Assembly: GCA_964572155.1 (NCBI GenBank)
Contig: CAZNDZ010000002.1
Span: 211,089 to 275,088, forward strand
Direction of reading: 5' to 3'
Origin: an uncultured Planctomycetales bacterium
Lineage (GTDB): Bacteria; Omnitrophota; Gorgyraeia; Zapsychrales; Fredricksoniimonadaceae
Length of the DNA stretch: 64,000 nucleotides
Made by a program: the position numbers and the translations under genes. The notes beneath the pieces were generated by a model. That model worked only from the letters and a program-made list of their open reading frames with translations. It had not been told where the DNA came from and searched no databases. Every line of letters starts with the position of its first letter. The stretch's first letter is position 1. Positions 30,592-48,196 of this stretch are shown in pieces.

Positions 30592-30618
30592 TTATTAGTT
30601 TATCACATTTCTGTTATT

Positions 30619-30640: not shown

Positions 30641-30647
30641 AAGCTAG

Positions 30648-31013
30648 TTATTTTAATCTAAAAAACGCATTCTTAATGTGTGTTATTTCTTTGGCCCTAT
30701 CCTTCATCAAAATTGAGACCACATCGAATCTGCTTAAGATGGCGACCGTGCCGTGTTTGTATTTCATGTACACTTGTGCTAGTTTGATCAGGCGTTTTTG
30801 TTTGTGGTAGGTGACGGATTCGAAGGGTTGGCCGTATTGTGTTGAGAAACGGGTTTTGACCTCCACAAACACGAGCACTCCTCCGTCTCGAGCAACTATG
30901 TCGATTTCACCTAATAAGCATCGAAAATTTTGTTCGATGATCTTAAATCCCTTTGAGTGCAAATATTCACACGCGGCTTGCTCGCCTATCTTTCCAAATG
31001 ATACATTGGTCAT
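30648..31013 (-). CDS. yraN: YraN-family (UPF0102) predicted PD-(D/E)xK endonuclease
   Basis: 121 aa (GEQAACEYLHSKGFKIIEQNFRCLLGEIDIVARDGGVLVFVEVKTR). Last gene of the long overlapping T4SS/pilus gene run. Confidence 0.75.
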   Translation of the reverse strand: MTNVSFGKIGEQAACEYLHSKGFKIIEQNFRCLLGEIDIVARDGGVLVFVEVKTRFSTQYGQPFESVTYHKQKRLIKLAQVYMKYKHGTVAILSRFDVVSILMKDRAKEITHIKNAFFRLK

Positions 31014-32131
31014 AAGCCTCCCATTGCTTTAAAACGTTCTTGGGCTTTGCTTTCTTCAAGTGTTCGAAGCTGCTCTTCTTTGGCTTGATTGAGCATGTGG
31101 TCAATCACAATGGCATAATCGCTTATATCTTTTAATTTATCTGTAAGGGAATCTTTTTCTTGTTGTAAATAGGTGATACCTTTTTGGATAATATTCTTGT
31201 AAGCATCTTCCAAGATGGGATGATCTTTATAGCGGTTGAGCCATTCTAATGCTTCATTATATTGGTCGATGGCTTGACTAATGGCACGTTGGGATGCAAT
31301 CGCTTGCACATGATTTAGACGATCAGCATCATTAAGCGTAAGTAAAAAAATGAAGTCTACAGATGTAAAAGGCCTATTAGGTTGGGACAAACTTTCTAAC
31401 AGATCCGTGGCTACTGTCTTTTGATGCTGATATGTTGAAAGCGCATTGTTAATTGTCGTGATATTCGTGTCTTTATATGCTTTTAAGACATGTCCAATCC
31501 TTTTGGATGGGCCGACTAAAAATATTGCCCCACTCTCAACTCGCCAAACAGGCAAGATGGATAGAATGTTTTCCTTCTTAGCGCCTCGAAGATTGAAAAG
31601 GTTAAATAACTTTTCAAAAAGATTTGGCGCATTTACATATTCAAAATCTTTAAAGGCGGCATTGGCTTGACAACTTTTTAATAAGCTGTCTAAATCGTTT
31701 TTATATGTTCCCCTAAAGAACTTCTCCTGAACACAATTATAGATAGCTTCTTTGCGTAGCATATTTAGATCGTGACGATTATTATCTTCCAAGTCTTTTA
31801 AACGATCGTACGTTGTATTAAAACGCAAATATGACAATGTTTGGAAATGTTTAAATACATCTGCCTCCGCTGGCGCGCCATATTCCCAAAGTAGTAAGTC
31901 AGAGGACTTTAAATTTTGACGATGCGTTGTTGCACTTAAATCATCGATGGATTTCTTAATTTCTAAATCTGGATCAATACTCCATGTCATCAAGGGCTTA
32001 ACGACAGATTTCTTATACGCATATGGATCACCTAATGCCGAGGTCAAATCATGATCTGTTTTATCGCTTTGAAATATATCTGCCATGGCATTGGATTGCA
32101 GGATCAGAATTAATAATATTACGTGCATCAT
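31010..32131 (-). CDS. secreted hypothetical protein in the T4SS/pilus cluster
   Basis: 373 aa with a signal peptide (MMHVILLILILQSNAMA). Translationally coupled on both sides. No family recognised. Confidence 0.45.
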   Translation of the reverse strand: MMHVILLILILQSNAMADIFQSDKTDHDLTSALGDPYAYKKSVVKPLMTWSIDPDLEIKKSIDDLSATTHRQNLKSSDLLLWEYGAPAEADVFKHFQTLSYLRFNTTYDRLKDLEDNNRHDLNMLRKEAIYNCVQEKFFRGTYKNDLDSLLKSCQANAAFKDFEYVNAPNLFEKLFNLFNLRGAKKENILSILPVWRVESGAIFLVGPSKRIGHVLKAYKDTNITTINNALSTYQHQKTVATDLLESLSQPNRPFTSVDFIFLLTLNDADRLNHVQAIASQRAISQAIDQYNEALEWLNRYKDHPILEDAYKNIIQKGITYLQQEKDSLTDKLKDISDYAIVIDHMLNQAKEEQLRTLEESKAQERFKAMGGL

Positions 32132-32445
32132 TTAGTTGGAGCCTCAATTAACCTTGTAACGGCTTCTTGAGCTTTTTTAAGTTGATCCATCTTCTTTTGT
32201 TGCCAATCTAAGTACGCTTGTGCATTTGCTAGACTTGGGTCGTTAAGCAGATTGATCACGACTTGAGGTGTTGTTTTTGGCCAATCTAAAATATGCTCTT
32301 TTTTCTTAAATGGTTTCTTTTTATCGACCTGAAAATATTCAACGGGTTCCAGCTTAAAGAAACTATTTGCCAATAGCGTCGAAGGCAACAGCATCACCAA
32401 AAATATTACAGCGATGTTGGGTCGGGAATTGCGGTTTTGCAGCAT
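32128..32445 (-). CDS. small secreted hypothetical protein in the cluster
   Basis: 105 aa with a signal peptide. Overlaps both neighbours. Confidence 0.4.
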   Translation of the reverse strand: MLQNRNSRPNIAVIFLVMLLPSTLLANSFFKLEPVEYFQVDKKKPFKKKEHILDWPKTTPQVVINLLNDPSLANAQAYLDWQQKKMDQLKKAQEAVTRLIEAPTK

Positions 32446-33110
32446 TCTCTAAACCTCCAATAAACCCACAGATACTTTCCGGCAGGATCAACATGATCAT
32501 TTTCCCATAAACGAGCATCTGTGCCTGGAGCCATGCACATAAGCTTATTTGGCTCTAACATTTGCACTTTATCACGGACTGGATCAACAACAAAACCCGC
32601 GGCACTGATCCCTCTCAAGGAAATCAATGCAGATGAAACCCCTGGGCTATAATGGTTGATAAATCCTGTCCTTGGATAAAGCGGCCCCCAGTTACCAATA
32701 AAATATGACGCATTATTTACGGTTGCTCTGCGCCAATGTTCTTGATTAAACTCCGATAAATACCTTATGCCCATTGTTGTGCTTAATAGCGATGAACATA
32801 AAACAGCTTGTTGTATTTGTTTCAACGGGAAATCATAGACATGCACTTCATTAAAACGTAGGTTTCCTCCGTTTAAAGCGCCTAAACTAGATTTGCTTGC
32901 GATCGTACTCATGATAAAAGTTGGCTCATAATATGAGATTCTAATGCCTGGAACATCACCAACCATGCAGGGACCGTATTGTTTTAATTGGGTGCACTGC
33001 ATATCGATCTTGGTAATCGCATGACCAATGCGCGCCACCTCACCTTGAATATCCGTAACAGCAGCGAATGCGTTTGATCCGAACAACATGAGAAAAAGAA
33101 TATGGATCAT
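32406..33110 (-). CDS. periplasmic Cys-containing protein, candidate short TraU-like F-type T4SS component
   Basis: Signal peptide. Several blocks resemble F-plasmid TraU as recalled from memory (ISYYEPTFIM ~ IGYWEPMAL; IRYLSEFNQEHW ~ IAYLSEIDPTW; conserved Cys). 234 aa, versus about 330 aa for TraU. Confidence 0.35.
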   Translation of the reverse strand: MIHILFLMLFGSNAFAAVTDIQGEVARIGHAITKIDMQCTQLKQYGPCMVGDVPGIRISYYEPTFIMSTIASKSSLGALNGGNLRFNEVHVYDFPLKQIQQAVLCSSLLSTTMGIRYLSEFNQEHWRRATVNNASYFIGNWGPLYPRTGFINHYSPGVSSALISLRGISAAGFVVDPVRDKVQMLEPNKLMCMAPGTDARLWENDHVDPAGKYLWVYWRFRECCKTAIPDPTSL

Positions 33111-33988
33111 ATTTTCATAATAAAAGCCAAGGCATAAAACGGCGGAACATTATAATCTGCTGCAACGGTATGTGTATGCCCTTGCCCCCCTCCCGTCCTT
33201 CCCGTTCGCGGGATAGGACTAAACATGCTGGCATGACCGCCTGGATTACTTCCGTACAATCCTTTATTGCTAATTAAATCAATTGAAACATTTGGATTCT
33301 CCTCGTGATCATGTGAAGGTATTTCAGAAATTGTTAAAACATGACTTCCCGTTAAGCCCGTATGATCATGACTGACACTGCCACCAGTTTGATTTAAAGC
33401 CCCCATGATATTTGTTTTAGCAAAACCTTGGTCATCTTGCCTAGCACCTACTATAAACTTATCTCTTAAATCCGGCGTACCATTATTGCCGTCGCATAAG
33501 ATCCACCCAATGGGTATATCTGCAATAGTGCCTGACCAAGCAGCAATCACACCAGCGGCGATGATATTACGATCACTAACGCCAATCATGCTGCTGATGC
33601 TACTTCCCTCAGATGACGCTTGAGACAAACGTGCCATCAACATTCCTGTCAGATTCACTGGAACTTGAGTTGTGACCGTCATGGTTTTTGATGCAAATGA
33701 TGCCTGATATGCATGATTCCAAGGATTCCTTAATGACCATAAGGGGCTTAAATAGCCCTCTGTTTGTAATTGCTCCAAATCATTAGGCCACCGACGATTG
33801 TCAGTATAATATTTCTGAGCGGCTGTTTGGATGATCCCAACCTCAGTAATGGTTTTCTCGCCGGCTTTTATTTCAATAGCCCGCACCGCCATAGGCATCA
33901 ACGCAGATGTGAGCAATGCGATGATACCCATGGCTACGGCTAATTCAATTAAACTGAATGCTTTTTTATTTAGAATGTGACGGTCCAT
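33107..33988 (-). CDS. prepilin-type minor pilin fused to a C-terminal phage tail-collar domain (putative adhesin pilin)
   Basis: Class III signal (KKA|FSLIELAVAMGII, Glu at +5). GspG-like PWNHAY motif. C-terminal tail-collar-like sequence (GWILCDGNNGTPDLRDKFIVG...SHDHTGLTGSHVLTISEIPSHDH...PPFYALAFIMKI). Confidence 0.7.
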   Translation of the reverse strand: MDRHILNKKAFSLIELAVAMGIIALLTSALMPMAVRAIEIKAGEKTITEVGIIQTAAQKYYTDNRRWPNDLEQLQTEGYLSPLWSLRNPWNHAYQASFASKTMTVTTQVPVNLTGMLMARLSQASSEGSSISSMIGVSDRNIIAAGVIAAWSGTIADIPIGWILCDGNNGTPDLRDKFIVGARQDDQGFAKTNIMGALNQTGGSVSHDHTGLTGSHVLTISEIPSHDHEENPNVSIDLISNKGLYGSNPGGHASMFSPIPRTGRTGGGQGHTHTVAADYNVPPFYALAFIMKI

Positions 33989-34419
33989 GTTGAACTTGTA
34001 TCGTCATAGGCAACCTTAGTTGCGCTATTGTTAAAATAATTGGTTAATTTATCCGCCTCAGTTTTTGCCAAACTACTCAAGGAAATATCAAATCGCGTTT
34101 TATCTGCCGTATTGGCCACCACGTTATAATCCCCTCCCCACGGATTCGTCTTACTAGCAACAAAACCATCCGGCAATACTTTCGCGGTCTTAAGAACATC
34201 AACGCTCATGCCAGCATAATTGATATTACCCGACGCTAAATAACTCTCCGCCGCTGTCCTTAAAGTTTGAACACTATTTGCCGCTGACTGAACGCGGGCA
34301 TTGTCTCTTAAACCTGATGATACTGAAATACTTAAAATGAGCACTGTTAACACAGCCAGTCCTATGGCTAGTTCTACTAAAGAAAAACCTTCTTGTGATG
34401 CGATGCTTCTTCTTTTCAT
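33970..34419 (-). CDS. prepilin-type major (pseudo)pilin, GspG-like
   Basis: Leader MKRRSIASQEG|FSLVELAIGLAVL (G-1, F+1, E+5). GspG-like NPWGGDY motif. 149 aa. Confidence 0.75.
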   Translation of the reverse strand: MKRRSIASQEGFSLVELAIGLAVLTVLILSISVSSGLRDNARVQSAANSVQTLRTAAESYLASGNINYAGMSVDVLKTAKVLPDGFVASKTNPWGGDYNVVANTADKTRFDISLSSLAKTEADKLTNYFNNSATKVAYDDTSSTWTVTF

Positions 34420-34433
34420 TTTCCTCTCCTTTT

Positions 34434-35630
34434 TTACCCCCCCGCGATCTGTGTCAAACTCCCATACACAGGAATTAAGAACGCGAAGGCAATGATGATT
34501 AAAAACACTCCACCCAACAGCAATAATGCTGGTTGAATGAGCATGACCATTTGATCGACGCGGTCATGTACGCGCTTATTAAAATATCCTGATAGGTTTG
34601 AAACATATTCCGGTAGTCGTGTCATTTCTTCTCCACGACGAATAGTAAATATCACAACAGAGGAAAAAATCGGATCTGTTTTGAGAGCTTCCCATAACGG
34701 CATACCTCCAAACAAATAATCGCGACATTGATAAACATGACGGCTAATGATGCTCACATTTAACGCGTTTAAATCATTGATGCATTTGATCAATGGCACT
34801 CCGTTGCGCAATAAAATTGATAGATTTAGAAAATAAAACGCTAAGTCTGTTTCTTTCTTGATGCGGCCCATCAATGGGATGCGATATATCACCATGTCAT
34901 AAATACGCTGATTTTTTCTTAATACGAAAATGCCTACAGTCAATAGAATCACCGGAATAACGAGCAATAAAATAAAATGTTTTTGTAAGCATACACTCAT
35001 GGCAATCACAATGCTGGCCGTCCCTTTAAGGCGTGCAGTATCTGGTAATAATTGTTTTAATTTCGGAATAACGTTTAGACCCACATACATCATCACGCTT
35101 ATTAATAAACAAAATACGATCGATGGGTATGTCAAAGCTTCGTGTAATTTATGACGGATCTCTGCTTGCCTTTTAAAATACTGCGCTAAAAGTTGATACG
35201 ACGCTTCTAACTTTCCACTCTGTTCGCCGCTTTTGATGGTCAAAATAACGATCCATGGAAAAGTATTGGTTTTTCTAAAAGCATCCGCCAGACTTAAACC
35301 CTCCTCAATCTTATCTCTTAAAACATCAATAACATGAGCTAAAGTTACATCTTGAGTAGAATCCCTCAGTGACAGCAACATCTGCGTTAAACTTAATCCT
35401 GTTTGCTGCATATTGCTTAAATCTTCAAAAAATGCCGTTAAGGTCTTTACGGATAACCGTTTCATCTGATAAAACTTTTCGAAAAATAAGACGAAATCCG
35501 GCTGTAAATCGATCAACTCCAATTGATGCACCTTTATGTATGCCATTATTTCTTGTTTGGTTGCTGATAACGAACCACGGACATCTTGACCTTGAGCATT
35601 TAATGCCTGATATTTCCAATGTTTGATCAT
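34434..35630 (-). CDS. GspF/PilC-family inner-membrane platform protein
   Basis: 398 aa with two cytoplasmic repeats and 3 TM helices, typical of the T2SSF family. Overlaps the ATPase gene by 4 bp. Confidence 0.75.
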   Translation of the reverse strand: MIKHWKYQALNAQGQDVRGSLSATKQEIMAYIKVHQLELIDLQPDFVLFFEKFYQMKRLSVKTLTAFFEDLSNMQQTGLSLTQMLLSLRDSTQDVTLAHVIDVLRDKIEEGLSLADAFRKTNTFPWIVILTIKSGEQSGKLEASYQLLAQYFKRQAEIRHKLHEALTYPSIVFCLLISVMMYVGLNVIPKLKQLLPDTARLKGTASIVIAMSVCLQKHFILLLVIPVILLTVGIFVLRKNQRIYDMVIYRIPLMGRIKKETDLAFYFLNLSILLRNGVPLIKCINDLNALNVSIISRHVYQCRDYLFGGMPLWEALKTDPIFSSVVIFTIRRGEEMTRLPEYVSNLSGYFNKRVHDRVDQMVMLIQPALLLLGGVFLIIIAFAFLIPVYGSLTQIAGG

Positions 35631-37165
35631 CCAAGCACCCGCCTTGCTTCGTCAGGGGTTGTTTTACCCTCTTTGATCATCTGCAAAACCTGCGTCTCCA
35701 TCGATGTGGCAACACCCTGTGTTTTCAAATACGCTTTTAAACCGGCCATATTCTGCGCTAATAGTAATTCCTCGATGGTGTCATCACAATCAATGATCGA
35801 TGCCACAACACTACGCCCCTTAAACCCACCCAAACAATACTTACAACCTTTTGTACAATGCGGACATACCAACCGCACCAAGCGCTGTGTGATCACCATA
35901 GAAATATTGGATGCCATATAGGCAAATGGCACACCTAAATCATGAAGCCTTAAAAATGCATCTATGCCTTGCTTAGCGTGCAGAGTGGCAAAAACTTTAT
36001 GACCTGTCATGGACGCGCGTATGGCTTCTTGCGCAGTTTGGGCATCGCGAATTTCACCAATGAGAATGATGTTGGGATCATGGCGTAAGAAAGCACGAAC
36101 GGAATTGCCAAAATTAATATCTCTTTTATCATTGGTTTGTACTTGCGTGATTAAGGCATGATGCATTTCAACGGGATCTTCAATGGTCAGAATCTTGCGC
36201 TCAATGCTTTTCATGAAATTTAACATGGCATACAGCGTCGTGGTCTTCCCACATCCTGTAGGCCCAACAATCAATACCATCCCTTCTGGCTTCTTTAATT
36301 TCTGTTCGATCGTATACCACTGCTCTGATGTATATCCCAAAGACACCAAAGGGATTGAAGCCTTCTGCTTATCTAAAAGCCGCAAGACCAGTGAACTTCC
36401 CTGCACACAGGGAATATGTGATACACGGACATCCACCACGGCATGATGATGCGTATATGTGAAACGCGCGTCATGAAATTTGCCAAAATCACTGATCGTA
36501 ACATCCGCTTTATGAAAGATGATATTGACCAACCGTTTTTGTAAGTCTAACTTTAAGGTCTGATAAAAATGCAAGATCCCATCAATGCGAAAACGTACTT
36601 CGACAGCTTTTAAGGACGGCTCTATATGAATATCCGTAGCCCCTTTCGAGAGCGCGTCATTAAAACATTGCTCTACCCACTGTGGTAGATCATCCCCTCG
36701 TGTATCATCATGTGATTTCCATACCTCATCATTATTACTTAAATCTTCTATGGCTTTACGCAACGCCGCCTCAGGCGCTAACATAAATTGTGCTTTGGTA
36801 TTGATCTTGGCTTCAATGGCATCGGTGGTTGCCATGTCGTCACTAAAAGCCATGATAAAAACAATGCCCTCATGCGCCTTGGCAGGAAAAATCATATGCT
36901 TCACCATGAAATCAACGCCTAACAATTTAACCATTTCTTGCGCGGCTTCATATCGCCCCTCATAGACACCCCATCCAACTTGTTTGGCTAAGGCATGCAC
37001 AATTTGATCGTCGCTGATAAAGTCATAATCCTTTAACACTTTCCCGATGCGTTCATGCCCATTATTCTTCTGAACGGATAAACAAAAATTTAACGCCTTA
37101 TCATTGATTAATCCTTGTTCTTTTAGAATATGACCAATGCGTTGATTGTGCATTTTACCTCCCAA
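35627..37165 (-). CDS. GspE/PilB-family secretion ATPase with N-terminal MshEN/GSPII_E_N domain
   Basis: Walker A (GPTGCGKTTTLYAML), Asp/His boxes, tetracysteine motif (CPHC...C..C). N-terminal IGHILKEQGLINDKAL domain. Confidence 0.85.
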   Translation of the reverse strand: MGGKMHNQRIGHILKEQGLINDKALNFCLSVQKNNGHERIGKVLKDYDFISDDQIVHALAKQVGWGVYEGRYEAAQEMVKLLGVDFMVKHMIFPAKAHEGIVFIMAFSDDMATTDAIEAKINTKAQFMLAPEAALRKAIEDLSNNDEVWKSHDDTRGDDLPQWVEQCFNDALSKGATDIHIEPSLKAVEVRFRIDGILHFYQTLKLDLQKRLVNIIFHKADVTISDFGKFHDARFTYTHHHAVVDVRVSHIPCVQGSSLVLRLLDKQKASIPLVSLGYTSEQWYTIEQKLKKPEGMVLIVGPTGCGKTTTLYAMLNFMKSIERKILTIEDPVEMHHALITQVQTNDKRDINFGNSVRAFLRHDPNIILIGEIRDAQTAQEAIRASMTGHKVFATLHAKQGIDAFLRLHDLGVPFAYMASNISMVITQRLVRLVCPHCTKGCKYCLGGFKGRSVVASIIDCDDTIEELLLAQNMAGLKAYLKTQGVATSMETQVLQMIKEGKTTPDEARRVLG

Positions 37166-37682
37166 TCATGATGATCTTTTCTTGACCTTGTTCATCTGTG
37201 ATAACCATTCTGTCGTCGGAAATACTCTTGACCTTATAGGCGCTATCAATAAACTGCCCTATTTTGAAATACGTCACACTGCCATTTATTAGCACAATCG
37301 CCTGTTTTTCAGCACCTAATTGAACAATGCCATTTAATTTGATGGGATCTGACGCAACGTCCTTTATGTTCACTTCAGAGCTTTGTTCATACTTAGAGAG
37401 TTTTGATTGAATTTCTTTTTGCTTCAATTGCAAATCCGCACGCATTACATCCAGATCCAATAATTTTATTTCTCGTAATCGCTCATTTTCTTGATTAATA
37501 AATGCACGCATCGGATCCTCAGGTTTTTTCTCAGGAACAACGCTTTCAACAGTCTTAATAGAGTTACTTTCTTCTACTGTCTTGTCAGGATCTTGATCCA
37601 ACATAGATATTTCTTTGGCATGTATCTGAATCTGCCAAATTAAGAAGATACTGACGAAACAACAACATTTCTTAAACCCCAT
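37155..37682 (-). CDS. PilP/GspC-like bitopic protein (secretin-interacting HR-like beta domain)
   Basis: N-terminal TM, coiled coil, C-terminal domain (IKLNGIVQLGAEKQAIVLINGSVTYFKIGQFID...KVKSISDDRMVITD) resembling PilP/GspC HR domains. Confidence 0.5.
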   Translation of the reverse strand: MGFKKCCCFVSIFLIWQIQIHAKEISMLDQDPDKTVEESNSIKTVESVVPEKKPEDPMRAFINQENERLREIKLLDLDVMRADLQLKQKEIQSKLSKYEQSSEVNIKDVASDPIKLNGIVQLGAEKQAIVLINGSVTYFKIGQFIDSAYKVKSISDDRMVITDEQGQEKIIMIGR

Positions 37683-40586: not shown

Positions 40587-40848
40587 ACGACTCCTTTTGG
40601 GTTGCTATGGGATAAGCCCCTGCTTTGGCCCATTGCCCTGGTTTAATGAGTACCAATTCTTTGTGTTCTGGGATAAATACACCATTTTCAATATGCGCTG
40701 GAACACCAACATCTTGTACAATTGGCTCATTCCAATGGTAGAACGGCACGTTGCTGATTTTGGAAGCCTCATGTTTTACCTTTTCTTGCGCAGCGCAACC
40801 CATACACAAAACACCATATAACAATAAAAACATATACCTAAAGACCAT
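40510..40848 (-). CDS. small secreted/lipoprotein-like protein upstream of the secretin (pilotin candidate)
   Basis: Signal peptide ending in Cys (MVFRYMFLLLYGVLCMGCAAQ). About 112 aa from the internal Met. Translationally coupled to the secretin. Confidence 0.35.
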   Translation of the reverse strand: MVFRYMFLLLYGVLCMGCAAQEKVKHEASKISNVPFYHWNEPIVQDVGVPAHIENGVFIPEHKELVLIKPGQWAKAGAYPIATQKESYEKPSENNNVDDVSDITSVPRSMGE

Positions 40849-43318
40849 AAGGGTGCTCCTTTGCGCATAATTGTATTGCTTCCATAAAATCACCTTCGCA
40901 TTCCTCTACTTTCTTTATTAAATATTCATTATTACGGGGCTCAGAATTTGCCACCCAATATAAAAATGGATCCGGCACAAGACGCACAACACCACAAGAG
41001 TTTTCTGTAATCACTAACCCTTCAGAAAACTTACCCTTCACGGTTTCGAGCGTCTTAAGCAACTTAATTTTCTGATCATCTAAGGATAAGCTGCTTTTAA
41101 GCAAGTCAATGACAGCAGGTTCTTGTTTAAGAAAAATCTTATTTGAGGCATTGGCAATAATGGCAATACCACTTTCAACACGGGTTAAATCTGCAATTTC
41201 TTGTGTGATGGCAATGGTTGAACAGCGGTACTTGCGAAATGTCTTAAAGGCATTGGTAATAAAATCCGCCGTATTTTTTACTTTTAACAGGGACCACGCT
41301 TCATCAATGAGCAAATATTTTCTTTTAGAGCGCATCTCCTGATGAGCTACAAAATTTGTCATAAAGAACATGAGATTAAGCAAAACAGCCACTTGTAAAT
41401 CAGGGTAAGAACTTAAGTTTGCTAACTCAAAAGCAATAAAACGGCTATTCATTTGGAATTGATTGGGCCCATCAAAGAACCCACCGTATGGTCCTTTCTT
41501 AGTAAACGGCGTTAACCGCAAAGCCAGCGTTGGCCCCATTAAAGAATTAATGCCACAACTGCTGTTAAATTCATTGTCATTTAAAATTGACGTCACATCT
41601 GATAAGAATACTTCTTGGCGTTCATCTTTCTGGCGATATGCCACCATGATGGCTTGGTGCAGGAGGCCCTCTTCTTCTCTTGTCAGACGATAACGTTCAT
41701 CTCCACCACTTGCCATTTGTGACAACAATGATAGTAAAAACGATAAATTCTCAGGGGTCGGCGGATGGGCAAAAGGATTAAATGTAACAGGATTATTCAA
41801 ATCAAAAGCAACATATTGTCCTTTCAAGATTTGACATAATTTCTTATATGAATCGCCTTTATCTAAAATAAAAAAATGACTCCCTAAACGATCGCTTTGA
41901 AGGATAAAATCATTGATAAAGAAACTTTTCCCAGCTCCTGAAGCTCCCACGACAACCCCATGGGGGTTGATGTTAGAATCAAACATATCAAAATTAACAG
42001 CTTGGCCTCGACGATTGAAGTACATTTGAGCAAGGGTTCGCGTTCCTTGATAAGCTCCAAAGACAGGCAACATATCAGCAGCATTGTTAGATAACAACCT
42101 TCTGGAGCGACGGACAAAGTTTTCGTAATATGGATCGAAATTAAGAGGCAAACACGTCAAGAATAATGATGCCCCTATTAAATCCTCCTTCATGCCTTCA
42201 CATTGAAGTCGATTAAGGCCATTGATAATCTGATCACTCTGAGCTTCTACATCTTGTGCTTGAAAACCTCGAACAATCCAATGAAAGCGGGCCTGCACGA
42301 TGCGTTGATTACCCTGATACATTTCTTTAATCACATCATCAATCTCGTTCTTCTTCGCAACAGATTCAATAGATTGATCCCCTAACCAATTTTCTTTATG
42401 CATGAACGTAAAATCTTTTTGAAACTTTAACTGATCCAAAGATTTCTGTGATGATGGAACCGTAAGGTTAACCACCATCATCAACTCAACAGCTTGATCC
42501 AATAAATTAAAACTTCCTCCTTCATAAAATTCTTTACAAAACATCCCTATATGAGTTTCTATAGGCATTTCCTTTAAACTCATCAGACACATATGTTGCT
42601 CTTCAAAGAAAAACCCTTTTGCATTCGCGGATGGACTATTAAAAAGCACTTGATCACGAATATTCTCTTCCTCATTAAACCGATGATTAGGCGTTTTTAA
42701 AGAACGTTTTGGATTTAAAATCTCGTAAAGAAAAATTGTTAAGTCTTCTGCAGATAATGGTTGAACCTTAGTATGAACCGAATTAAATAATCCTTCGATT
42801 AAGGCAATATGTTGTTTAAAAGCATTTTGATGCGCTAATAATTCGCTTTCAACCTGCACGCCATTACTTCTTTTCCAAATAGGGAAAAATCTTACTGCAA
42901 CATAAATGTCAATATGCTTTAGAACAAATTTATGGTTATTATGCTCAAACAAACCGTGTTGATGGGTTTCTATATATGAAGAACGATTCTTTAAAAAAAC
43001 AGAAGTAACATTCTCATCTTCTTTGTAATTTGCATAATTCTTAAGGGACTCATTTATATTAGACTTTGTTCTTAGGATAAGTTGGCATGCAAAGTTTTCA
43101 GATGGCAGACGAGCTAAGAAGTTTTGCCATTGGATGATCATCATATTTAAATCACCTTCTGTTTTCCCTTCAATATCCGTCACCCCCACCTTCCAAATTT
43201 TCCCAAGGCTACCGTCGGATAAAATGCACATATCGTTGGAGTATTCAATATAGGGTAGCAAGTCGACAAAACTTAAGCCCTCGTCAAATAATTGCTCTAT
43301 GTCTTTATGTCGCAGCAT
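40838..43318 (-). CDS. traC: VirB4/TraC-family type IV secretion ATPase
   Basis: 826 aa. Walker A (VVVGASGAGKSFF). Hallmark Walker B (YLLIDEAWSLL) of the CagE/TrbE/VirB4 family. Position after the traV-like gene, as in F. Confidence 0.8.
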   Translation of the reverse strand: MLRHKDIEQLFDEGLSFVDLLPYIEYSNDMCILSDGSLGKIWKVGVTDIEGKTEGDLNMMIIQWQNFLARLPSENFACQLILRTKSNINESLKNYANYKEDENVTSVFLKNRSSYIETHQHGLFEHNNHKFVLKHIDIYVAVRFFPIWKRSNGVQVESELLAHQNAFKQHIALIEGLFNSVHTKVQPLSAEDLTIFLYEILNPKRSLKTPNHRFNEEENIRDQVLFNSPSANAKGFFFEEQHMCLMSLKEMPIETHIGMFCKEFYEGGSFNLLDQAVELMMVVNLTVPSSQKSLDQLKFQKDFTFMHKENWLGDQSIESVAKKNEIDDVIKEMYQGNQRIVQARFHWIVRGFQAQDVEAQSDQIINGLNRLQCEGMKEDLIGASLFLTCLPLNFDPYYENFVRRSRRLLSNNAADMLPVFGAYQGTRTLAQMYFNRRGQAVNFDMFDSNINPHGVVVGASGAGKSFFINDFILQSDRLGSHFFILDKGDSYKKLCQILKGQYVAFDLNNPVTFNPFAHPPTPENLSFLLSLLSQMASGGDERYRLTREEEGLLHQAIMVAYRQKDERQEVFLSDVTSILNDNEFNSSCGINSLMGPTLALRLTPFTKKGPYGGFFDGPNQFQMNSRFIAFELANLSSYPDLQVAVLLNLMFFMTNFVAHQEMRSKRKYLLIDEAWSLLKVKNTADFITNAFKTFRKYRCSTIAITQEIADLTRVESGIAIIANASNKIFLKQEPAVIDLLKSSLSLDDQKIKLLKTLETVKGKFSEGLVITENSCGVVRLVPDPFLYWVANSEPRNNEYLIKKVEECEGDFMEAIQLCAKEHPYGL

Positions 43319-43892
43319 CGTATTTCCTTTTGTTTTGGGTAGTTTGCTTTATTGGGAAGCCCATTGGACTTTTAACTTTTTGATCTTCTTCTTTCATGCT
43401 TAATAACTCTCTAATCTTTTCAAAAAGAGATATGATTTGGCTGTCATGTATATTAAATCTTCCTTCTACACGTAATTCGAGTTCTTGAATCTTTTGTGCT
43501 AATTCTTTATGGGTTAGAATTAAATCTCTTAATTTGACAAAAATACGCATGATTTGTAGATTAACTTCAATGGCTTTCTCACTGTTAAGTACTGAAGATA
43601 GCATTGCTATCCCAAGCTCTGTGAATGCATATGGTGGTTTTCTAGCGCCTCCCCATCTTGATATCGCAAAATGCGATATCAAGTTTCTCATCTCATCTTG
43701 AGTTAATTGAAACATACAGTCTTCAGGAAACCTTCTTGTATTTCTTTTCACTTGCTCATTTAATCTAAAGGTTTCAACTCCATACAAAATCGCCAAATCC
43801 CTATCCAACATAACTTTTTTGCCGCGTATCAAAAAAATTCTCTCTTGTATAACTTCTATAGAGACATCACTTACTTTGATATTTTTCTTCAT
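43305..43892 (-). CDS. ORF6N (KilA-N-related) domain DNA-binding protein
   Basis: Classic ORF6N sequence (RIFLIRGKKVMLDRDLAILYGVETFRLNEQVKRNTRRFPEDCMFQLTQDE). Start taken at MKKNIKV. Occupies the F traR position between traV and traC. Confidence 0.7.
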   Translation of the reverse strand: MKKNIKVSDVSIEVIQERIFLIRGKKVMLDRDLAILYGVETFRLNEQVKRNTRRFPEDCMFQLTQDEMRNLISHFAISRWGGARKPPYAFTELGIAMLSSVLNSEKAIEVNLQIMRIFVKLRDLILTHKELAQKIQELELRVEGRFNIHDSQIISLFEKIRELLSMKEEDQKVKSPMGFPIKQTTQNKRKYDAAT

Positions 43893-44256
43893 TTTTTTCT
43901 CCTTTGCCTTCTTTTCCAGGAACAATGATAGGTAAAATTGAGTCTTGTATTTCATCCTCAATAAACCACTTTGGCCCTCGAATCATAAGATAGACCCAAT
44001 GACCAGCAACTAGGACACCGGAATCTTGATCTGACTTATGGTCTGGGATCCATACTTTTTTAACGACTGGCGGCTCAATAACGGGAACATATGGCTTTAC
44101 ATAGCCAAATACTTTTTGTTCCTTGAATTGGTCCAATTGATTTATTTCAAGATCCGGCATTAATACTTTTCTTTCTGCTGTTTCTTTGACGAGTCGGTGT
44201 GCGCAACCGCTAGTTAATAGAAGACAACTTATTAAAATTAGTGCGTAATAGGCCAT
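43867..44256 (-). CDS. small lipoprotein, TraV/VirB7-like
   Basis: Signal peptide with lipobox-like LLTSGC. 129 aa. Position between the traB-like gene and traC, as for traV in F. Confidence 0.45.
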   Translation of the reverse strand: MAYYALILISCLLLTSGCAHRLVKETAERKVLMPDLEINQLDQFKEQKVFGYVKPYVPVIEPPVVKKVWIPDHKSDQDSGVLVAGHWVYLMIRGPKWFIEDEIQDSILPIIVPGKEGKGEKNEEKYQSK

Positions 44257-45307
44257 TGATTCTCACTCCTTTTTGAACGACAAAATATACACTATTGCCG
44301 CTGGGTATATGGACAGCAGGGATGATGTATTCTGCTTGTTTTTCGTAATATTGGGATAAATCGCTGGAACTTTTGGCAAGGCCACTAAACAAGGCATGCC
44401 GGCTCACATCGCCTGTCACATTACGTTCTACCTCGCCAAAGCGACTTTGTGATGTGGTGATTTCATTGTCAGCTAAAGCTGTTGAACCACCTGACATAAA
44501 TCCCCCTAAGAATGTTACGGCTAAAGCTTTGCCAGTATTTCTAACAACTTGCCCTTTGATCCCTAATTCACCATAAGCGTCGGTGACATAGCCAATGTCT
44601 TGTTCGTGTTCAAAGACTTGGCCATTGGGTAAAACAAACGATATGGCAACAATTTGAATAAGCGCTCGCTCTGAATTTATATCCCCAACGGCTTTGCCCA
44701 AGACAAAAGCACCCTTTAATGGAACTCTTGTTTTATTTGGGCCATAAAAAGCCTCATCCAATTTGATTAAGACAGGTAATGGACTGTTTAAATCTGAAGA
44801 AGCATAAACACCAGTTAGTAATGTCCCTTTACAAAATGATCCAATCGGTAAATAAACAAATTCTTTAGCTGAATCTAATTCTTTGATCGGTGCGACAGCT
44901 AGCTCAAATGATGTAGTTATTGATGTATCCTGATTAGATGTATTTGCAGCTATTATTTCTCGAATATTATTTAACGAATCAACCACTATTTTTTGGTCTT
45001 TGTTTGACTGTTCTGTTGCTTGTTTGATGGACTGTACTTGTTCTTCCATAGCTTTGATCCTATCTTCAAAATCGTAGTAACTTTTTTGAAGACCTTTCAT
45101 GAATTCCAGCTTCTCAGTGTCCCCAACGGCTATGCCCATGGCATCTTTTGATTGTTCTTTTAAAATAGGGATATCTTTCTTTTGAGTTAGATCTGATTGA
45201 GCAAATACAAAGACACAACATATAACAGCAACGACACCCAAAACCCCATAGGAGACCAATGGATCTTTTTTAAACTGTGCTTTTAGTTTTTCGAGGTAAT
45301 CATCCAT
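44210..45307 (-). CDS. traB: TraB/VirB10-family protein
   Basis: Short cytoplasmic N-terminus, single TM (VLGVVAVICCVFVFA), coiled-coil linker, C-terminal TrbI-like beta domain (GELGIKGQV...). Position after the traK-like gene. Confidence 0.55.
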   Translation of the reverse strand: MDDYLEKLKAQFKKDPLVSYGVLGVVAVICCVFVFAQSDLTQKKDIPILKEQSKDAMGIAVGDTEKLEFMKGLQKSYYDFEDRIKAMEEQVQSIKQATEQSNKDQKIVVDSLNNIREIIAANTSNQDTSITTSFELAVAPIKELDSAKEFVYLPIGSFCKGTLLTGVYASSDLNSPLPVLIKLDEAFYGPNKTRVPLKGAFVLGKAVGDINSERALIQIVAISFVLPNGQVFEHEQDIGYVTDAYGELGIKGQVVRNTGKALAVTFLGGFMSGGSTALADNEITTSQSRFGEVERNVTGDVSRHALFSGLAKSSSDLSQYYEKQAEYIIPAVHIPSGNSVYFVVQKGVRINGLLRTNFNKLSSIN

Positions 45308-45924
45308 ATCTTTGTCTCATCTCCTTCTTGGCCACTTGGATTTAAGATGTCCGAGTTTGACGCTATCGCCAGAATACCTTTATATGAAATCTGTTGAATC
45401 GGAACCATCGTGGCGCTGTTATTCAAGTTTTTTGCACTTAGTTCGTAAATGATTGTTGTTGGAAACTCATAAGCATGAGTAAAACTTAATTCAATGGGTG
45501 AATCTTTTAATGTTATAGTTCTATGTAAAGATATCTGTGTTGATCCTGCTGGAATATTTCCTAGAAGCACATCCTTCATTAAATCCATGACATTTAGATC
45601 CCCTTTAAAAGAATTTGTTTTACCACCAATAACAACGCTTAAATCGTGTGCTTGAGATATTTGTAAACTAAGTGGATACGATGTACCTGACGCCCCTGTT
45701 ACAAAAATGTCTGCAGGTGTATTAGACTTTGGCAAGATGTATAGTGTGCGATCTACAGCTTCTACTAGAATTGAATCTGCCGCTCCGCCTTTAATGACCT
45801 TAGAAATATTTTCAGGGAATGACACTTCACTCACCTTACCAACGTTGACATGCACGGTCGTGACTTCTGCAGCATTAAGGTTGTAACTAATGACCATAAA
45901 CAGAATAATTATAAAAACTCTCAT
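45283..45924 (-). CDS. traK: TraK/VirB9-family secreted protein
   Basis: Signal peptide. Beta-rich 213-aa protein in the traE-traK-traB position. Confidence 0.5.
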   Translation of the reverse strand: MRVFIIILFMVISYNLNAAEVTTVHVNVGKVSEVSFPENISKVIKGGAADSILVEAVDRTLYILPKSNTPADIFVTGASGTSYPLSLQISQAHDLSVVIGGKTNSFKGDLNVMDLMKDVLLGNIPAGSTQISLHRTITLKDSPIELSFTHAYEFPTTIIYELSAKNLNNSATMVPIQQISYKGILAIASNSDILNPSGQEGDETKIWMITSKN

Positions 45925-46532
45925 GAAGCATGCTCCTGTTCAATGGCTTCAATAAGCAAGCCATATGGATTGCTTGATGTTGGCCCTACTATGCGTACTG
46001 TGATTAAAAAAGTTAATTGTTGCTCTTTAACTGCTTCCTTCCCCATGTACATCACCTTGACCCCTTTGACATGGACAATAAACCCTTTGCTCTTAACGTT
46101 GACAATTGGATCACTCTCGAGCGTGAACATCGACGATATATTACTGCGTTTAATTTCTTCTAAATCTTTAACTAATCTCAACTTGGTTTGCGTAAATAAC
46201 GACGGCGACATGAAACGTTGCGTTCTTTCGAACACAGCTTGGGATGTAATAGGATTGAAATTGTTCCAATTAAGCAACCACGCAGCCACAAAAGCAGACA
46301 CGGTTTCTATGCTGTTGTTTGCAGGGACCGCGACACCTGCTTGCCATACCCCTGGTATATAGTAAATTGATTTAGGTCGTGCCATTGTGTAAACCAACGA
46401 TATGCTTAAAATAACGCACACACAGCAAATTGCGATGCAAACAGCCCACAGCCGCGTGTTAATAAATTCGGCTCGAGATAAACGCTCTACAAATTGTGTG
46501 CTTTTACTTCTGACGGCGTCCATAAGCTCCAT
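45921..46532 (-). CDS. traE: TraE/VirB8-family bitopic protein
   Basis: N-terminal TM then periplasmic domain. Blocks match F TraE as recalled from memory (ERTQRFMSPSLFTQTKLRLVKDLEEIKRSNISSMFTLES vs HQALLQYIRPGAQNQMKVILAEEAKRIKNDNVNSAFFQTS). Confidence 0.6.
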   Translation of the reverse strand: MELMDAVRSKSTQFVERLSRAEFINTRLWAVCIAICCVCVILSISLVYTMARPKSIYYIPGVWQAGVAVPANNSIETVSAFVAAWLLNWNNFNPITSQAVFERTQRFMSPSLFTQTKLRLVKDLEEIKRSNISSMFTLESDPIVNVKSKGFIVHVKGVKVMYMGKEAVKEQQLTFLITVRIVGPTSSNPYGLLIEAIEQEHAS

Positions 46533-46794
46533 ACTGTTGCGTGTTCTTAGGATTTGGTGCTAAACCTGGGAAATCTATGCCGCGCACATACAACCAATGC
46601 AACAAATAACCAAAAGGTTTGCCTTGTTTAAACTTCACTAATATGACCCACCCGATAATTCCTAATATTCCTGGAACGTAAGGTTCAAGAAATAAACTAC
46701 CCAAACCTATGCCTAATGCCAAGACGGCGATATCTTCCACTTCGAGACCGAAAAGAATTTGTGGCTTATCGATACTGCGATAACATTTGCGCAT
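46504..46794 (-). CDS. traL: TraL/VirB3-family small membrane protein
   Basis: Start taken at MRKCYRS. Matches the F TraL pattern as recalled from memory (FGL..ED...L..G.....VKFKQGKPFGYLLHWLY ~ [21 protein letters not shown]). Directly downstream of the pilin gene. Confidence 0.65.
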   Translation of the reverse strand: MRKCYRSIDKPQILFGLEVEDIAVLALGIGLGSLFLEPYVPGILGIIGWVILVKFKQGKPFGYLLHWLYVRGIDFPGLAPNPKNTQQYGAYGRRQK

Positions 46795-46796
46795 GA

Positions 46797-47078
46797 TTAA
46801 CCTGTCGCAACCTTTGTTAATAACATGGGTAAGAATAAAAGCATGATGAACGCTACAGCACAAGACAACGCGAGCTTATGCCTTCCTCTTAATAATGACG
46901 CTACACCCGTCAATAAGATCACAGCCCCTAATATTTTGGCTATGGGCCCTTTTAAGATATTGATCGATTGTGTTGAGAAATCGTTGGCTACACCAAGAGG
47001 ATCATCTGCCATAACCTTCGACATGAAACAAAAAATAAATATTTGAAACAACAACACCTTACGTAACAACGACGTCAT
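46797..47078 (-). CDS. traA: T4SS pilin (TraA/VirB2/TrbC-like propilin)
   Basis: 93 aa with a signal peptide (…FMSKVMA|DDP), then two hydrophobic helices separated by a short basic loop (LLRGRHK). First small gene of the tra-like run. Confidence 0.6.
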   Translation of the reverse strand: MTSLLRKVLLFQIFIFCFMSKVMADDPLGVANDFSTQSINILKGPIAKILGAVILLTGVASLLRGRHKLALSCAVAFIMLLFLPMLLTKVATG

Positions 47079-48196
47079 ACCCTGCCTCCTTTAATAAAAA
47101 CAACTCTTGATAAAATAATTAAGACAAAGAATACCCCTACGAACACAACACAAAAATATGGATACTCAAATGTGTTGGCTTGAGTTCTTCCAACATAAAT
47201 AGATACATAGGAGCTAATGGTTGCTAATAGTGCCCATGATTTAACCCATACAAAATTTATGATGTAATGAAATAGATATGCTGTGTTGCTGCTGATGATG
47301 AAAGCTAAGATGACAAATGGAAATATTACAGCTAAAGACATTTGTGCAAGGCCATGCAAGACAGGTAGAAAATTTAATGCATGTAATACATATGGGTAAA
47401 CATCTAACTTGGAACCATCACCTATGCTTTGCTCTGCGTATGATCTAATAATGAGTTGCTTAAGATCATCGTTTGAGATATTTAATAATGTCGATAATTT
47501 TTGACGTGAGGCCTGCTTTAGATTTGGATCATTCTCGAAATACTGATCAATATCCCGCTCGATCTTCTGCCACTGTTTCTTTTCTTCTTTGGAATAATAA
47601 TCTTGTATGGTCTTACGTGTAGGCGCATCATGTTGCAAACGCGTCCATGCTGGCATGTAATGCTGCAGAATAAAACTCTTGAATGTTGCTCTTAAAGCTT
47701 TGTCTTGAAAGCCAACGTTTGTACCTTCTCTAATATATAGACAAACTTTCTGTATTTGATACGGGCTATCAAGAAACCTCAAATGCTCCGGAAGAATTTT
47801 GTCCATGATAGCAATCATTGCGAACACATACGAATCAATGCCCTGATTAACATAGGTAAATATCACAGGCACTTTATCAAACCGAATCAAAGCTTCTTTA
47901 ATGTCTTTACTCTCAACACTGGATTGACCGTATGATTCTTGGGCGCTTTTATAATCGTTTAAGGATTGTGACGGGAGAAGTAAGACAACGAGGGTAAAAA
48001 TAGAAACAACATAAACCCATATTCGGCCATACTGGCCTTTTCTGGCTAGGTTCCAAAAAATTAAGAAGTACGCCACCACCCCAAGTAGGATACCAATAGA
48101 CGATTGTTTGAAAATGTAGTCCATCAGCATTTGGGAGAAGTTTAACCCAAGAACAGACAAAGCCGTGTCGAGTGGCGTTAAACCAAAAACATGCAT
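47075..48196 (-). CDS. polytopic membrane protein, possible VirB6/TraG_N-like component
   Basis: 373 aa with 2 N-terminal and about 3 C-terminal TM helices around a roughly 200-aa hydrophilic loop. First gene of the cluster, overlapping the pilin gene by 4 bp. Confidence 0.3.
   Translation of the reverse strand: MHVFGLTPLDTALSVLGLNFSQMLMDYIFKQSSIGILLGVVAYFLIFWNLARKGQYGRIWVYVVSIFTLVVLLLPSQSLNDYKSAQESYGQSSVESKDIKEALIRFDKVPVIFTYVNQGIDSYVFAMIAIMDKILPEHLRFLDSPYQIQKVCLYIREGTNVGFQDKALRATFKSFILQHYMPAWTRLQHDAPTRKTIQDYYSKEEKKQWQKIERDIDQYFENDPNLKQASRQKLSTLLNISNDDLKQLIIRSYAEQSIGDGSKLDVYPYVLHALNFLPVLHGLAQMSLAVIFPFVILAFIISSNTAYLFHYIINFVWVKSWALLATISSYVSIYVGRTQANTFEYPYFCVVFVGVFFVLIILSRVVFIKGGRV

Follow-up and report, generated by a model that had tools for sequence, protein, structure and literature searches.

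How a type IV pilus comes to be encoded within the genes of a conjugation-type machine, and what such an arrangement could serve, is the question raised by a 17.5-kb gene run in contig CAZNDZ010000002.1, from an uncultured bacterium of the phylum Omnitrophota. The run lies in a stretch of 64,000 nucleotides, called here the window, in whose coordinates all positions are given. A type IV pilus module is nested there between traC and traU, in a co-oriented, overlapping and promoter-preceded operon, and this nesting is conserved across the phylum. Profile comparisons show in the surrounding genes a predicted type IV secretion system (T4SS) of the F/SXT lineage, with a pilin, equivalents of VirB3, VirB4, VirB6, VirB7, VirB8, VirB9 and VirB10, TraU, a TraF remnant and TraH. 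The locus is most likely a regulated cell-contact transfer apparatus, a variant of known machinery. More precisely, it would be an Omnitrophota-specific composite of two envelope machines, encoded in one chromosomal operon and combining contact-dependent transfer with pilus adhesion, a reading to which we attach a probability of roughly 0.55.

Layout of the operon and identity of its genes

The gene set was established from the open reading frame (ORF) listing of the window together with independent gene calls on an identical public contig (GCA_013565695.1, JACCDT010138498.1, 238,680 bp); the same DNA is also present in a Logan assembly. Both contain the one-strand gene run that a first-pass annotation had delimited at 30648-48196, with the compactness and overlapping ends then described and with 21 genes instead of the estimated 22 or so. 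Every junction among these genes is an overlap or a gap of at most 14 bp. The features are listed from the upstream end to the last gene, lengths being given in amino acids (aa), with the basis of each assignment in brackets (HMM, hidden Markov model).

48196 to 30648, minus strand: whole locus, 21 genes in one orientation, ~17.5 kb
48283..48310, minus: promoter-like site TTGACA-16 nt-TATAAT (12/12 consensus match)
47075..48196, minus: TraG N-terminal-domain/VirB6-like polytopic membrane protein, 373 aa (sub-threshold Pfam match and family HMM)
46797..47078, minus: VirB2/TraA-type T4SS pilin, 93 aa (signal peptide and two hydrophobic helices)
46504..46794, minus: TraL, VirB3-like, 96 aa by the public gene call (Pfam and topology)
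45921..46523, minus: TraE, VirB8-like bitopic protein (Pfam and family HMM)
45283..45924, minus: TraK-like (VirB9-like) periplasmic/outer-membrane core protein (signal peptide; encoded between traE and traB)
44210..45307, minus: TraB, VirB10 family (Pfam TrbI and NCBIfam)
43867..44256, minus: TraV lipoprotein, VirB7 analogue (Pfam and lipobox)
43305..43892, minus: ORF6N-domain (KilA-N-like DNA-binding) gene inserted between traV and traC (Pfam ORF6N, 111.5 bits)
40838..43318, minus: TraC, F-type VirB4 ATPase (Pfam, NCBIfam and family HMM)
40510..40848, minus: small conserved lipoprotein between traC and the secretin gene, 112 aa (lipobox LCMGC)
39210..40586, minus: secretin with STN domain and lipoprotein signal LQAC (Pfam)
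37672..39213, minus: PilO-like assembly protein, 513 aa (from its place behind the secretin gene, shared with the R64 and PAPI-1 clusters)
37155..37682, minus: PilP/GspC-like periplasmic protein, 175 aa (weak Pfam and NCBIfam matches)
35627..37153, minus: pilus extension ATPase of the PilB/GspE/MshE family with N-terminal MshEN domain (Pfam and NCBIfam)
34434..35630, minus: GspF/PilC-type inner-membrane platform (Pfam T2SSF, 121 bits in two stretches; GspF, 176 bits)
33970..34419, minus: major prepilin, type IVb-like, cleavage motif G|FSLVE (Pfam)
33107..33988, minus: minor prepilin in the PilV position, 293 aa, His-rich C-terminal region (Pfam N_methyl, 22.8 bits)
32406..33110, minus: TraU, short form, F-type-specific periplasmic protein, 234 aa (Pfam, 46.9 bits, C-terminal part)
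32128..32445, minus: TraF remnant, 105 aa (alignment to the orthologue of locus L020)
31010..32131, minus: TraH-family periplasmic protein, F-type-specific, 373 aa (family profile)
30648..31013, minus: YraN/UPF0102 nuclease-fold gene (Pfam UPF0102, 108.7 bits)

The promoter-like site lies 87 nt upstream of the first start codon, inside the 123-bp gap that separates a ParE-like gene from the first tra gene, and no other 12/12 match occurs within 29900-49800. Since the total of promoter-like sites in the region is not above that of shuffled sequence, the argument rests on position and not on enrichment. Between traC and the secretin gene, a scan revealed no terminator-like site on the minus strand, and the overlaps of traC, the lipoprotein gene and the secretin gene leave no room for a promoter or terminator there. 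A 26-bp palindrome (30617-30642) lies just past the last gene.

The proteins were scanned against Pfam and NCBIfam, and family HMMs made from collected orthologues were run against F-plasmid proteins. These scans place the tra ORFs in F-type T4SS families, not in families foreign to T4SS, and bear out the F-plasmid order proposed for the upstream half (pilin, TraL, TraE, TraK, TraB, TraV, [ORF6N], TraC). The pilin had been taken for the first gene of the run; that position belongs to the TraG N-terminal (VirB6-like) protein. TraL, TraE, TrbI/TraB, TraV, TraC_F_IV together with P-loop_TraG, and TraU all score above their Pfam cut-offs. TraL reaches 31 bits (cut-off 24.4; TIGR02762, 23 bits) and has two transmembrane helices, TraE reaches 45.6 bits (cut-off 24.8; family HMM to F TraE, E 2.5e-9), and TraV, with a lipobox LTSGC, 24.8 bits (cut-off 21). 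TraB matches TrbI at 74.7 bits, its best NCBIfam model is the F-type TraB (96.5 bits) and its family HMM finds F TraB at E 1.7e-28. For TraC, the values are 75.7 bits with TraC_F_IV (cut-off 28.1) and 144 bits with P-loop_TraG; TIGR02746, TraC-F-type, is the best of 15 NCBIfam models at 374 bits, short of the 567 bits of its equivalog cut-off, and the family HMM retrieves F-plasmid TraC at E 4e-48. On these scores the window protein is a divergent member of F-type TraC.

The matches to TraK_N, to the VirB2/TrbC pilin and to TraG_N fall below the Pfam cut-offs, and position and membrane topology agree with the three assignments. The TraK-like protein scores 21.3 bits with TraK_N (cut-off 24.8) and weakly with VirB9; its L006 orthologue has a weak TraK_C match, and the family HMM gave no significant match on the F plasmid. 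The T4SS pilin scores 19.2 bits with TrbC/VirB2, and TraA is the best F-plasmid match of its family HMM (E 0.0016). The TraG_N protein scores 24.7 bits against a cut-off of 36.1, its L005 orthologue has an unmarked TraG_N match and the family HMM finds F-plasmid TraG at E 3e-12. It contains at least four hydrophobic helices and lacks the C-terminal mating-pair-stabilisation half of F TraG, which was not found anywhere in the window. The ORF6N insert overlaps the neighbouring reading frames and occurs at this position only in the window and in its closest relative, L007; it lies outside the conserved machine.

After traC, Pfam matches confirm a secretin, a GspE/PilB ATPase, a GspF/PilC platform and two prepilins, as had been annotated. 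The secretin scores 118.7 bits with Secretin and 28.1 with STN; with NCBIfam models it scores 203 bits for MshL (cut-off 250), 140 for type IVb PilN and 118 for PilQ, all below cut-off, and its closest plasmid matches are PilN-family genes at 24-27% identity. The 112-aa lipoprotein encoded before it, a possible pilotin or PilL/TcpQ analogue, has no Pfam or NCBIfam match; it is present in 33 of 43 loci, and 34 of 38 orthologues display a lipobox-like motif. The PilP/GspC-like protein of the first-pass annotation is there (T2SSC 18.7 bits, TIGR03021 PilP 20 bits, both below cut-off), second after the secretin and not first, a place held by the 513-aa PilO-like protein. The latter matched nothing in Pfam or NCBIfam even at permissive thresholds, its profile gave chance matches only among PDB sequences, and its single-sequence AlphaFold model was too poor for use, with a predicted local distance difference test (pLDDT) score of 38. 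In most relatives the PilO-like gene encodes ~390 aa and is followed by one or more short genes, so that the window protein is apparently a fusion of these genes.

The extension ATPase scores 306 bits with T2SSE and 25.5 with MshEN, its best NCBIfam model being PilB (328 bits; GspE, 304). Its cyclic di-GMP (c-di-GMP) motif NF053729 reaches 39.9 bits for a cut-off of 38, and two RxGxxL...Q repeats are visible in the translation. The major prepilin matches Bundlin (29.6 bits, cut-off 22.3), PilS (22.1, cut-off 22) and N_methyl (20.5), and its family HMM picks out the type IVb major pilin of a plasmid (E 5e-14). That of the minor prepilin finds plasmid PilV at E 2.5e-9 through the N-terminal part; the C-terminal part bears a weak tail-fibre/tail-collar likeness (Gp10_C, E 0.01; Collar, E 0.027), and the protein is a candidate tip adhesin. 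A search around the minor pilin gene for shufflon-like inverted repeats found none. No prepilin peptidase, transglycosylase or retraction ATPase is encoded among the operon genes; the completeness ascribed to the pilus module was slightly overstated with respect to the peptidase and the retraction ATPase. The make-up of a type II secretion system, with GspC, GspL, GspM and the pseudopilins GspG-K beside GspD, GspE and GspF, is not that of the locus, which has the weak T2SSC match alone, neither GspL nor GspM, and two pilins of which the major one is Bundlin/PilS-like.

The pilins are followed by the TraU-like protein that had been recognised at this place; its family HMM finds F TraU at E 1.6e-16, and the orthologues in L020 and in Candidatus Velamenicoccus archaeovorus give a full-length TraU match. 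The two ORFs that come next, annotated as secreted unknowns, are the TraF remnant (32128-32445) and the TraH-family protein (31010-32131). Both were placed with the help of L020, where traC is followed by genes for a lipoprotein, a 204-aa protein, a full-length TraU, a thioredoxin-like protein, a 256-aa TraF (Pfam TraF 35.2 bits, cut-off 23) and a 422-aa TraH (Pfam TraH 25.8 bits, cut-off 25), without a pilus module. The 105-aa remnant aligns with residues 83-124 of the L020 TraF and keeps the segment before the thioredoxin-like domain, the domain itself being lost; tblastn with the TraF-like query of V. archaeovorus also leads to this place (32152-32268). For TraH, a single-sequence search gave 3 relatives and a profile search settled the family. 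The profile retrieves 170 proteins, and 118 of the 120 matches listed carry Pfam TraH (PF06122), several being named TraH; one of the two without it is the window's own protein. V. archaeovorus BU251_02595 is among the profile matches and is 23% identical to the window protein over 287 aa (E 1e-22). Compared with F-plasmid TraH by HMM and hhalign, the family gave no informative match, a PDB profile search gave chance matches only, and hhalign of family alignments against single F or Rhodanobacter proteins yielded no usable probabilities.

With the TraF remnant and TraH encoded behind the pilins, the pilus module lies within the F-type operon, between traC and traU-traF-traH. The first-pass annotation had considered the distal F genes to be missing. 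This holds for TraW, TrbC and TraN, for which neither HMMs nor tblastn (E up to 1) gave a match in the window, but TraH, the TraF remnant and TraG_N are present, so the module does not replace the distal half. The YraN gene, confirmed at the end of the run, overlaps traH by 4 bp; most relatives' loci end before this position, V. archaeovorus has a type I restriction-modification system there in place of YraN, and YraN is at most a candidate member of the machine.

Conservation and co-divergence across Omnitrophota

A protein search with TraC returned hundreds of proteins, the named ones belonging to 'Candidatus Omnitrophica/Omnitrophota'. Loci were surveyed by a TraC scan of one genome per species, which gave 54 loci at 40-75% identity. 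They come from Omnitrophota metagenome-assembled genomes (MAGs), one 'bacterium' MAG, MAGs titled 'uncultured Planctomycetales' or 'Planctomycetia' with the same locus, and the complete chromosome of Ca. Velamenicoccus archaeovorus LiM. The planctomycete titles of operon-bearing MAGs (L008, L012-L014, L017, L018, L021, L022, L027, L030, L039, L048, L054 and L058, one of them with the chromosomal flank of the window) are probably coarse taxonomic labelling. Every TraC relative at 42% identity or above falls in an Omnitrophota-type MAG or in the LiM chromosome. The next TraC matches are at 28% identity in Bdellovibrionota/Oligoflexia and at 29%, over part of the protein, in the Neisseria genetic island, and a second, divergent Omnitrophota TraC paralogue is at 23-24%.

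When window proteins and family HMMs were mapped on all loci, one order was found throughout. Counted over non-redundant loci with enough downstream sequence, the secretin gene follows traC in 38 of 39 informative loci and the PilO-like gene in 34 of 36; the corresponding counts are 18 of 26 for the ATPase, 17 of 24 for the platform and 15 of 24 for the pilins. Besides L020, a tra operon without any pilus gene, the variants comprise a hot-spring clade (traC, lipoprotein, secretin, PilO, short gene, TraH) and another group in which secretin, PilO and PilP precede unrelated genes.

Pairwise identities of TraC and of the pilus proteins are tightly correlated (r 0.93-0.97; 0.96 for the secretin and 0.97 for the ATPase), the value for TraC and TraB being 0.95, and none of 2000 permutations reached the observed correlations. 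Judged by this congruence of protein divergence, which shows co-inheritance, the T4SS and pilus halves are not two adjacent islands. Overlapping genes, the missing terminator and the 38 of 39 traC-secretin junctions likewise speak against independent islands, a possibility that the first-pass annotation had raised against itself. As far as the survey extends, the operon is a chromosomal, lineage-wide feature of Omnitrophota and not a one-off.

The nested arrangement is found also in the V. archaeovorus genome. In the Velamenicoccus clade, two extra genes stand in the operon between TraG_N and the pilin, one of ~255 aa with a weak MobC 'replication-relaxation' match (E 3e-6), the other for a coupling protein (754-779 aa) that scores best with the SXT_TraD model; the operon of the window's clade has neither TraD nor the MobC-like gene. 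After its pilins, V. archaeovorus encodes TraU, a 170-aa protein with a weak TraW match, a TraF-like protein and TraH, then the type I restriction system, and no relaxase was seen in the locus. In this genome (CP019384), an opposite-strand GNAT/TacA1 toxin-antitoxin pair interrupts the operon downstream of the minor pilin gene, before traU (L086, 7020-7890), and a 224-aa gene lies between traL and traE (L024, 6133-6807).

The same architecture was ruled out for the Bdellovibrionota T4SS loci and for the second Omnitrophota TraC paralogue, neither having secretin or pilus genes beside TraC. The loci of the second paralogue (L071-L075 and L078-L080) contain VirB6-, VirB8- and VirB10-like genes and a coupling protein, without pilus genes, and are probably conventional mobile-element T4SS. 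The same Omnitrophota MAGs have both kinds of locus, for instance L074 with L014 in one and L078 with L007 in another. In L080, from an unclassified MAG, a secretin gene (5071-6564) lies ~3 kb upstream of the divergent TraC paralogue.

Chromosomal setting and neighbouring genes

The window is chromosomal, with housekeeping genes on both sides of the operon. Its gene content includes menaquinone (men) genes, xseA, serS, two tRNA-Ser genes, sensor kinases, fadL, lpxB, an msbA-like ABC exporter and Bat/TPR genes. GC content is uniform across the window, that of the operon being equal to that of its flanks, and the upstream flank BatD-LpxB-GFO-ABC-TPR is the same in a genome whose TraC is 66% identical. 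Bordering tRNA genes or direct (att-like) repeats were searched for at the operon edges and none was found, no integrase turned up among the ORFs scanned in the window, and megablast of the 17.5-kb region against plasmids gave no match.

Three toxin-antitoxin pairs bracket the operon: HicA/HicB-like at 30005-30591, Phd/ParE-like at 48320-48833 and MNT/HepT-like at 49724-50385. The syntenic relative L003 has none of the three, and its TPR gene abuts the first tra gene. Upstream of the operon, with toxin-antitoxin genes in between, a 1134-aa ORF (50826-54230, minus strand) belongs to no Pfam or NCBIfam family; within it a 198-nt (66-aa) unit is repeated ~12 times in tandem, its GC skew (-0.33 to -0.36) is the strongest in the window, and its product may be a secreted protein of repeat or beta-propeller-like type. 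At 50489-50764 lies a short piece of what may be a DNA-binding gene, RhuM-like by eye alone.

Farther away, a 710-aa ORF without family match (12211-14343) overlaps at its 5' end the tRNA-Ser(CGA) gene at 14250-14341, so its true start is probably further downstream; the second tRNA gene, tRNA-Ser(UGA), is at 15697-15783. The intervals 20327-23546 and 25161-27332 hold two tandem paralogous histidine kinases with seven-transmembrane (7TM) receptors and a third kinase with a GAF domain. An HD-GYP-like HD_5/GAF protein (23525-24709), possibly a c-di-GMP phosphodiesterase, may be relevant to the c-di-GMP motif of the pilus ATPase.

Related machines and likely function

With the F-type T4SS, class F of mating-pair formation (MPF_F), and especially its SXT/R391 and IncA/C-pAQU branch, the locus shares the pilin, the traL-E-K-B-V-C ... 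traU, traF, traH order and the TraG N-terminal domain. The closest plasmid TraC proteins are from Vibrio/Photobacterium MPF_F plasmids, at only ~25% identity; the best score of the Velamenicoccus-clade coupling protein is with SXT_TraD. Unlike F, the window operon has no TraN, TrbC, C-terminal TraG half, coupling protein or relaxase, nor TraW, which is weakly detectable in V. archaeovorus, and it is chromosomal, lineage-restricted and has a secretin-based pilus module inside. The Neisseria gonorrhoeae genetic island is also a chromosomal F-type T4SS not devoted to plasmid self-transfer, its function being DNA secretion; unlike the window, its locus has neither secretin nor type IV pilus genes. 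The gonococcal island possesses a relaxase, a coupling protein, TraN, TraW and TrbC.

The analogy with the thin pilus of R64, drawn in the first-pass annotation, holds for gene order. The pili of R64/TP114 (IncI1/IncI2) and PAPI-1 present the same succession of small lipoprotein, lipoprotein secretin (PilN), PilO, PilP, ATPase (PilQ), platform (PilR), major pilin (PilS) and a large minor pilin in the PilV position, and the window pilin matches the Bundlin and PilS families. A presumed shared role is that of helping the T4SS to find and hold the partner cell. The analogy does not extend to the secretin and the ATPase, which score higher with the MshL and PilB/MshE (MSH/type IVa) models than with type IVb models. 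R64 and PAPI-1 also carry a prepilin peptidase (PilU) and a transglycosylase (PilT), and R64 in addition a shufflon with Rci, none of which is present in the window operon. Moreover, the IncI and PAPI-1 pil clusters are separate operons beside I-type or GI-type T4SS on mobile elements.

MshL of the MSHA (mannose-sensitive haemagglutinin) pilus is the best secretin model, and the window ATPase shares the MshEN c-di-GMP motif. There is no prepilin peptidase in the locus, as in all MSH loci (PMC6668835). Unlike MSHA, the gene order is different and the module is embedded in a T4SS operon, and no equivalent of MshM, MshN, MshI, MshJ or MshK appeared in Pfam and NCBIfam scans of the accessory ORFs. 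MSH and type IVb pili are reported to be mostly confined to Proteobacteria (PMC6668835).

The first-pass supposition that this architecture had not been described agrees with the Omnitrophota and V. archaeovorus papers searched and with the matches of a full-text literature search, none of which reports it. The Omnitrophota survey (PMC10066038) contains no mention of T4SS, type IV secretion, conjugation or secretin; the 2026 preprints and V. archaeovorus papers searched leave the locus unmentioned, and papers with both Omnitrophota and T4SS in their full text name Omnitrophota in passing only. The Omnitrophota literature searched covers type IVa pili, Tad pili, F-type ATPases and giant proteins, not this locus. 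The Omnitrophota locus resembling a type II secretion system (T2SS), next to giant genes, is probably different, with rcpC/Tad-like genes and no tra genes mentioned; the giant-gene preprint describes it as T2SS/Tad-like.

If the operon indeed combines contact-dependent transfer with adhesion, the pilus module would build a fibre for adhesion, with c-di-GMP acting on the MshEN domain to gate its extension, and the tail-fibre-like minor pilin would bind the surface of another cell. Pilus adhesion may in this way replace the mating-pair stabilisation provided in F by TraN and the C-terminal part of TraG, both absent here. The T4SS would form an envelope-spanning channel and a short pilus for contact-dependent transfer of a macromolecule, the partner being perhaps a conspecific, perhaps the host or prey of these ultra-small epibionts. 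TraD and the MobC-like gene of the Velamenicoccus clade point to the transfer of nucleic acids (or DNA-protein complexes) as the ancestral function, and nucleic-acid transfer is likely to have been that function. In the window, TraD, the MobC-like gene and TraW are missing; therefore, either the coupling protein is encoded elsewhere in the genome or the system has been reduced to pilus and adhesion functions. The window version would be a reduced form whose ability to transfer is uncertain, and the missing coupling protein bears on the conjugation reading that had been offered for it.

Several observations weigh against our interpretation. No relaxase or coupling protein was found among the ORFs scanned in the 64-kb window, tblastn over the window with TraD-type queries found no coupling protein, and no oriT was found; transfer of a substrate by the window version is therefore hypothetical. 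The pilus part of the locus is not always complete, since two clades keep only secretin, PilO and sometimes PilP by traC. The PilO-like, PilP-like and lipoprotein assignments have position and weak matches as their basis, and the adhesin role of the minor pilin has E values of 0.01-0.03. Besides, genes may be transcribed and inherited together without their products being coupled, physically or in function.

Expression data for V. archaeovorus, the one cultured representative, point in the same direction. Supplementary file 2 of Lonsing et al. 2025 (PMC12583861) gives transcripts per million (TPM) and three metaproteomes for each coding sequence (CDS) of CP019384. With the mapping inferred from locus tags and gene order (BU251_02605 as CDS 510, the TraH gene BU251_02595 as CDS 508, the operon as ~CDS 480-508), operon rows are at 1.8-15.7 TPM and marked 'n.d.' in all three proteomes, in which 1282 of the 1936 CDS of the genome are detected (PMC12583861). 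The exceptions to 'n.d.' in the operon span are the insertion genes, CDS 486 and the toxin-antitoxin pair 503/504; flanking genes are detected also. Low TPM and undetected proteins argue against a constitutive, main predation device and for a weakly or conditionally expressed machine.

Among the alternatives, the best to survive, though an unlikely one, is that the window's clade transfers nothing and makes a conjugative-type pilus and a type IV pilus as a surface-fibre or adhesion apparatus. The coupling protein, the MobC-like gene and TraW are lacking in the window, TraF is truncated, TraU is shortened and the ATPase has an MshE-type c-di-GMP motif typical of adhesion pili; F-type systems can, moreover, assemble pili without TraD. 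However, the channel set of TraC, TraB, TraK, TraV, TraE, TraL and TraG_N is intact and conserved, the coupling protein could be encoded outside the 64-kb window, and sister clades keep TraD in the operon.

An ordinary self-transmissible element, either an integrative and conjugative element or an integrated plasmid, whose accessory thin type IV pilus serves mating in liquid in the manner of IncI R64/TP114 or PAPI-1, appears to us decidedly improbable. Conjugative elements with type IVb pili are well known (PMC9045228, PMC5297154). One plasmid has MobH, TraD and a PilN-to-PilV cluster, and the R64/PAPI-1 pilus gene order, the TraD and MobC-like genes in the Velamenicoccus-clade operon and the toxin-antitoxin pairs flanking that of the window would all suit such an element. 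A relaxase, an integrase, a coupling protein, att-like repeats and a bordering tRNA gene are all wanting in 64 kb, however; the housekeeping surroundings, with an upstream flank shared at 66% TraC identity, and the unchanged GC content are those of a chromosomal locus. The family is confined to one phylum, all its parts diverge congruently, and the closest plasmid TraC is 25% identical.

Equally hard to sustain is the idea of two functionally independent machines on one transcript, a pilus operon having once been inserted into a tra operon. L020, with its tra operon free of pilus genes, and the other loci that lost ATPase, platform and pilins indicate that the halves are separable. Yet the nesting, with overlapping frames, persists over the divergence of a whole phylum, to TraC identities as low as 42%, the two halves co-diverge as tightly as the T4SS genes do among themselves, and the secretin and PilO-like genes stay by traC even without the rest of the module. 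Least probable of all is a competence machine, in which secretin and pilus capture DNA and T4SS-derived parts import it, as in Helicobacter ComB: the secretin scores with HofQ/PilQ, the ATPase, platform and pilins with ComG models, TraC has a faint similarity to the CedB DNA importer and a YraN nuclease-fold gene ends the operon, but the HofQ/PilQ, ComG and CedB matches are generic superfamily ones far below cut-offs, the window showed no ComEC, ComEA or DprA, an F-type T4SS with its own pilin and F-specific pilus-assembly proteins is unlike ComB, and V. archaeovorus does not keep YraN in this place.

Transfer of molecules from V. archaeovorus into prey cells has been published and offers a plausible setting for our interpretation, though its authors draw no link to this locus (PMC13153191). 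One may imagine that secretin, PilO and PilP, instead of forming a pilus machine of their own, belong structurally to a composite T4SS-type IV pilus nanomachine, ancestral to Omnitrophota and moving nucleic acids or proteins, in either direction, between an ultra-small epibiont and the larger cell to which it attaches. This extension of our interpretation is quite unlikely on present evidence; if true, V. archaeovorus RNA would enter prey cells by way of this machine, and a new class of cell-to-cell transfer apparatus would be defined, in which two filament systems go with two rings in the outer membrane.

To our knowledge, no earlier case is on record of a type IV pilus module nested in, and co-evolving with, an F-type T4SS operon. 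The locus would also be an F-type system outside Proteobacteria that is inherited vertically and has no relaxase, and its variants, with or without the coupling protein and with or without the pilus motor, constitute a natural series for examining how the parts depend on one another. Omnitrophota are widespread, uncultivated, ultra-small bacteria, thought to be predators or parasites. A conserved conjugation-type channel with its own adhesion pilus is a testable candidate for the way in which they may exchange material with other cells.

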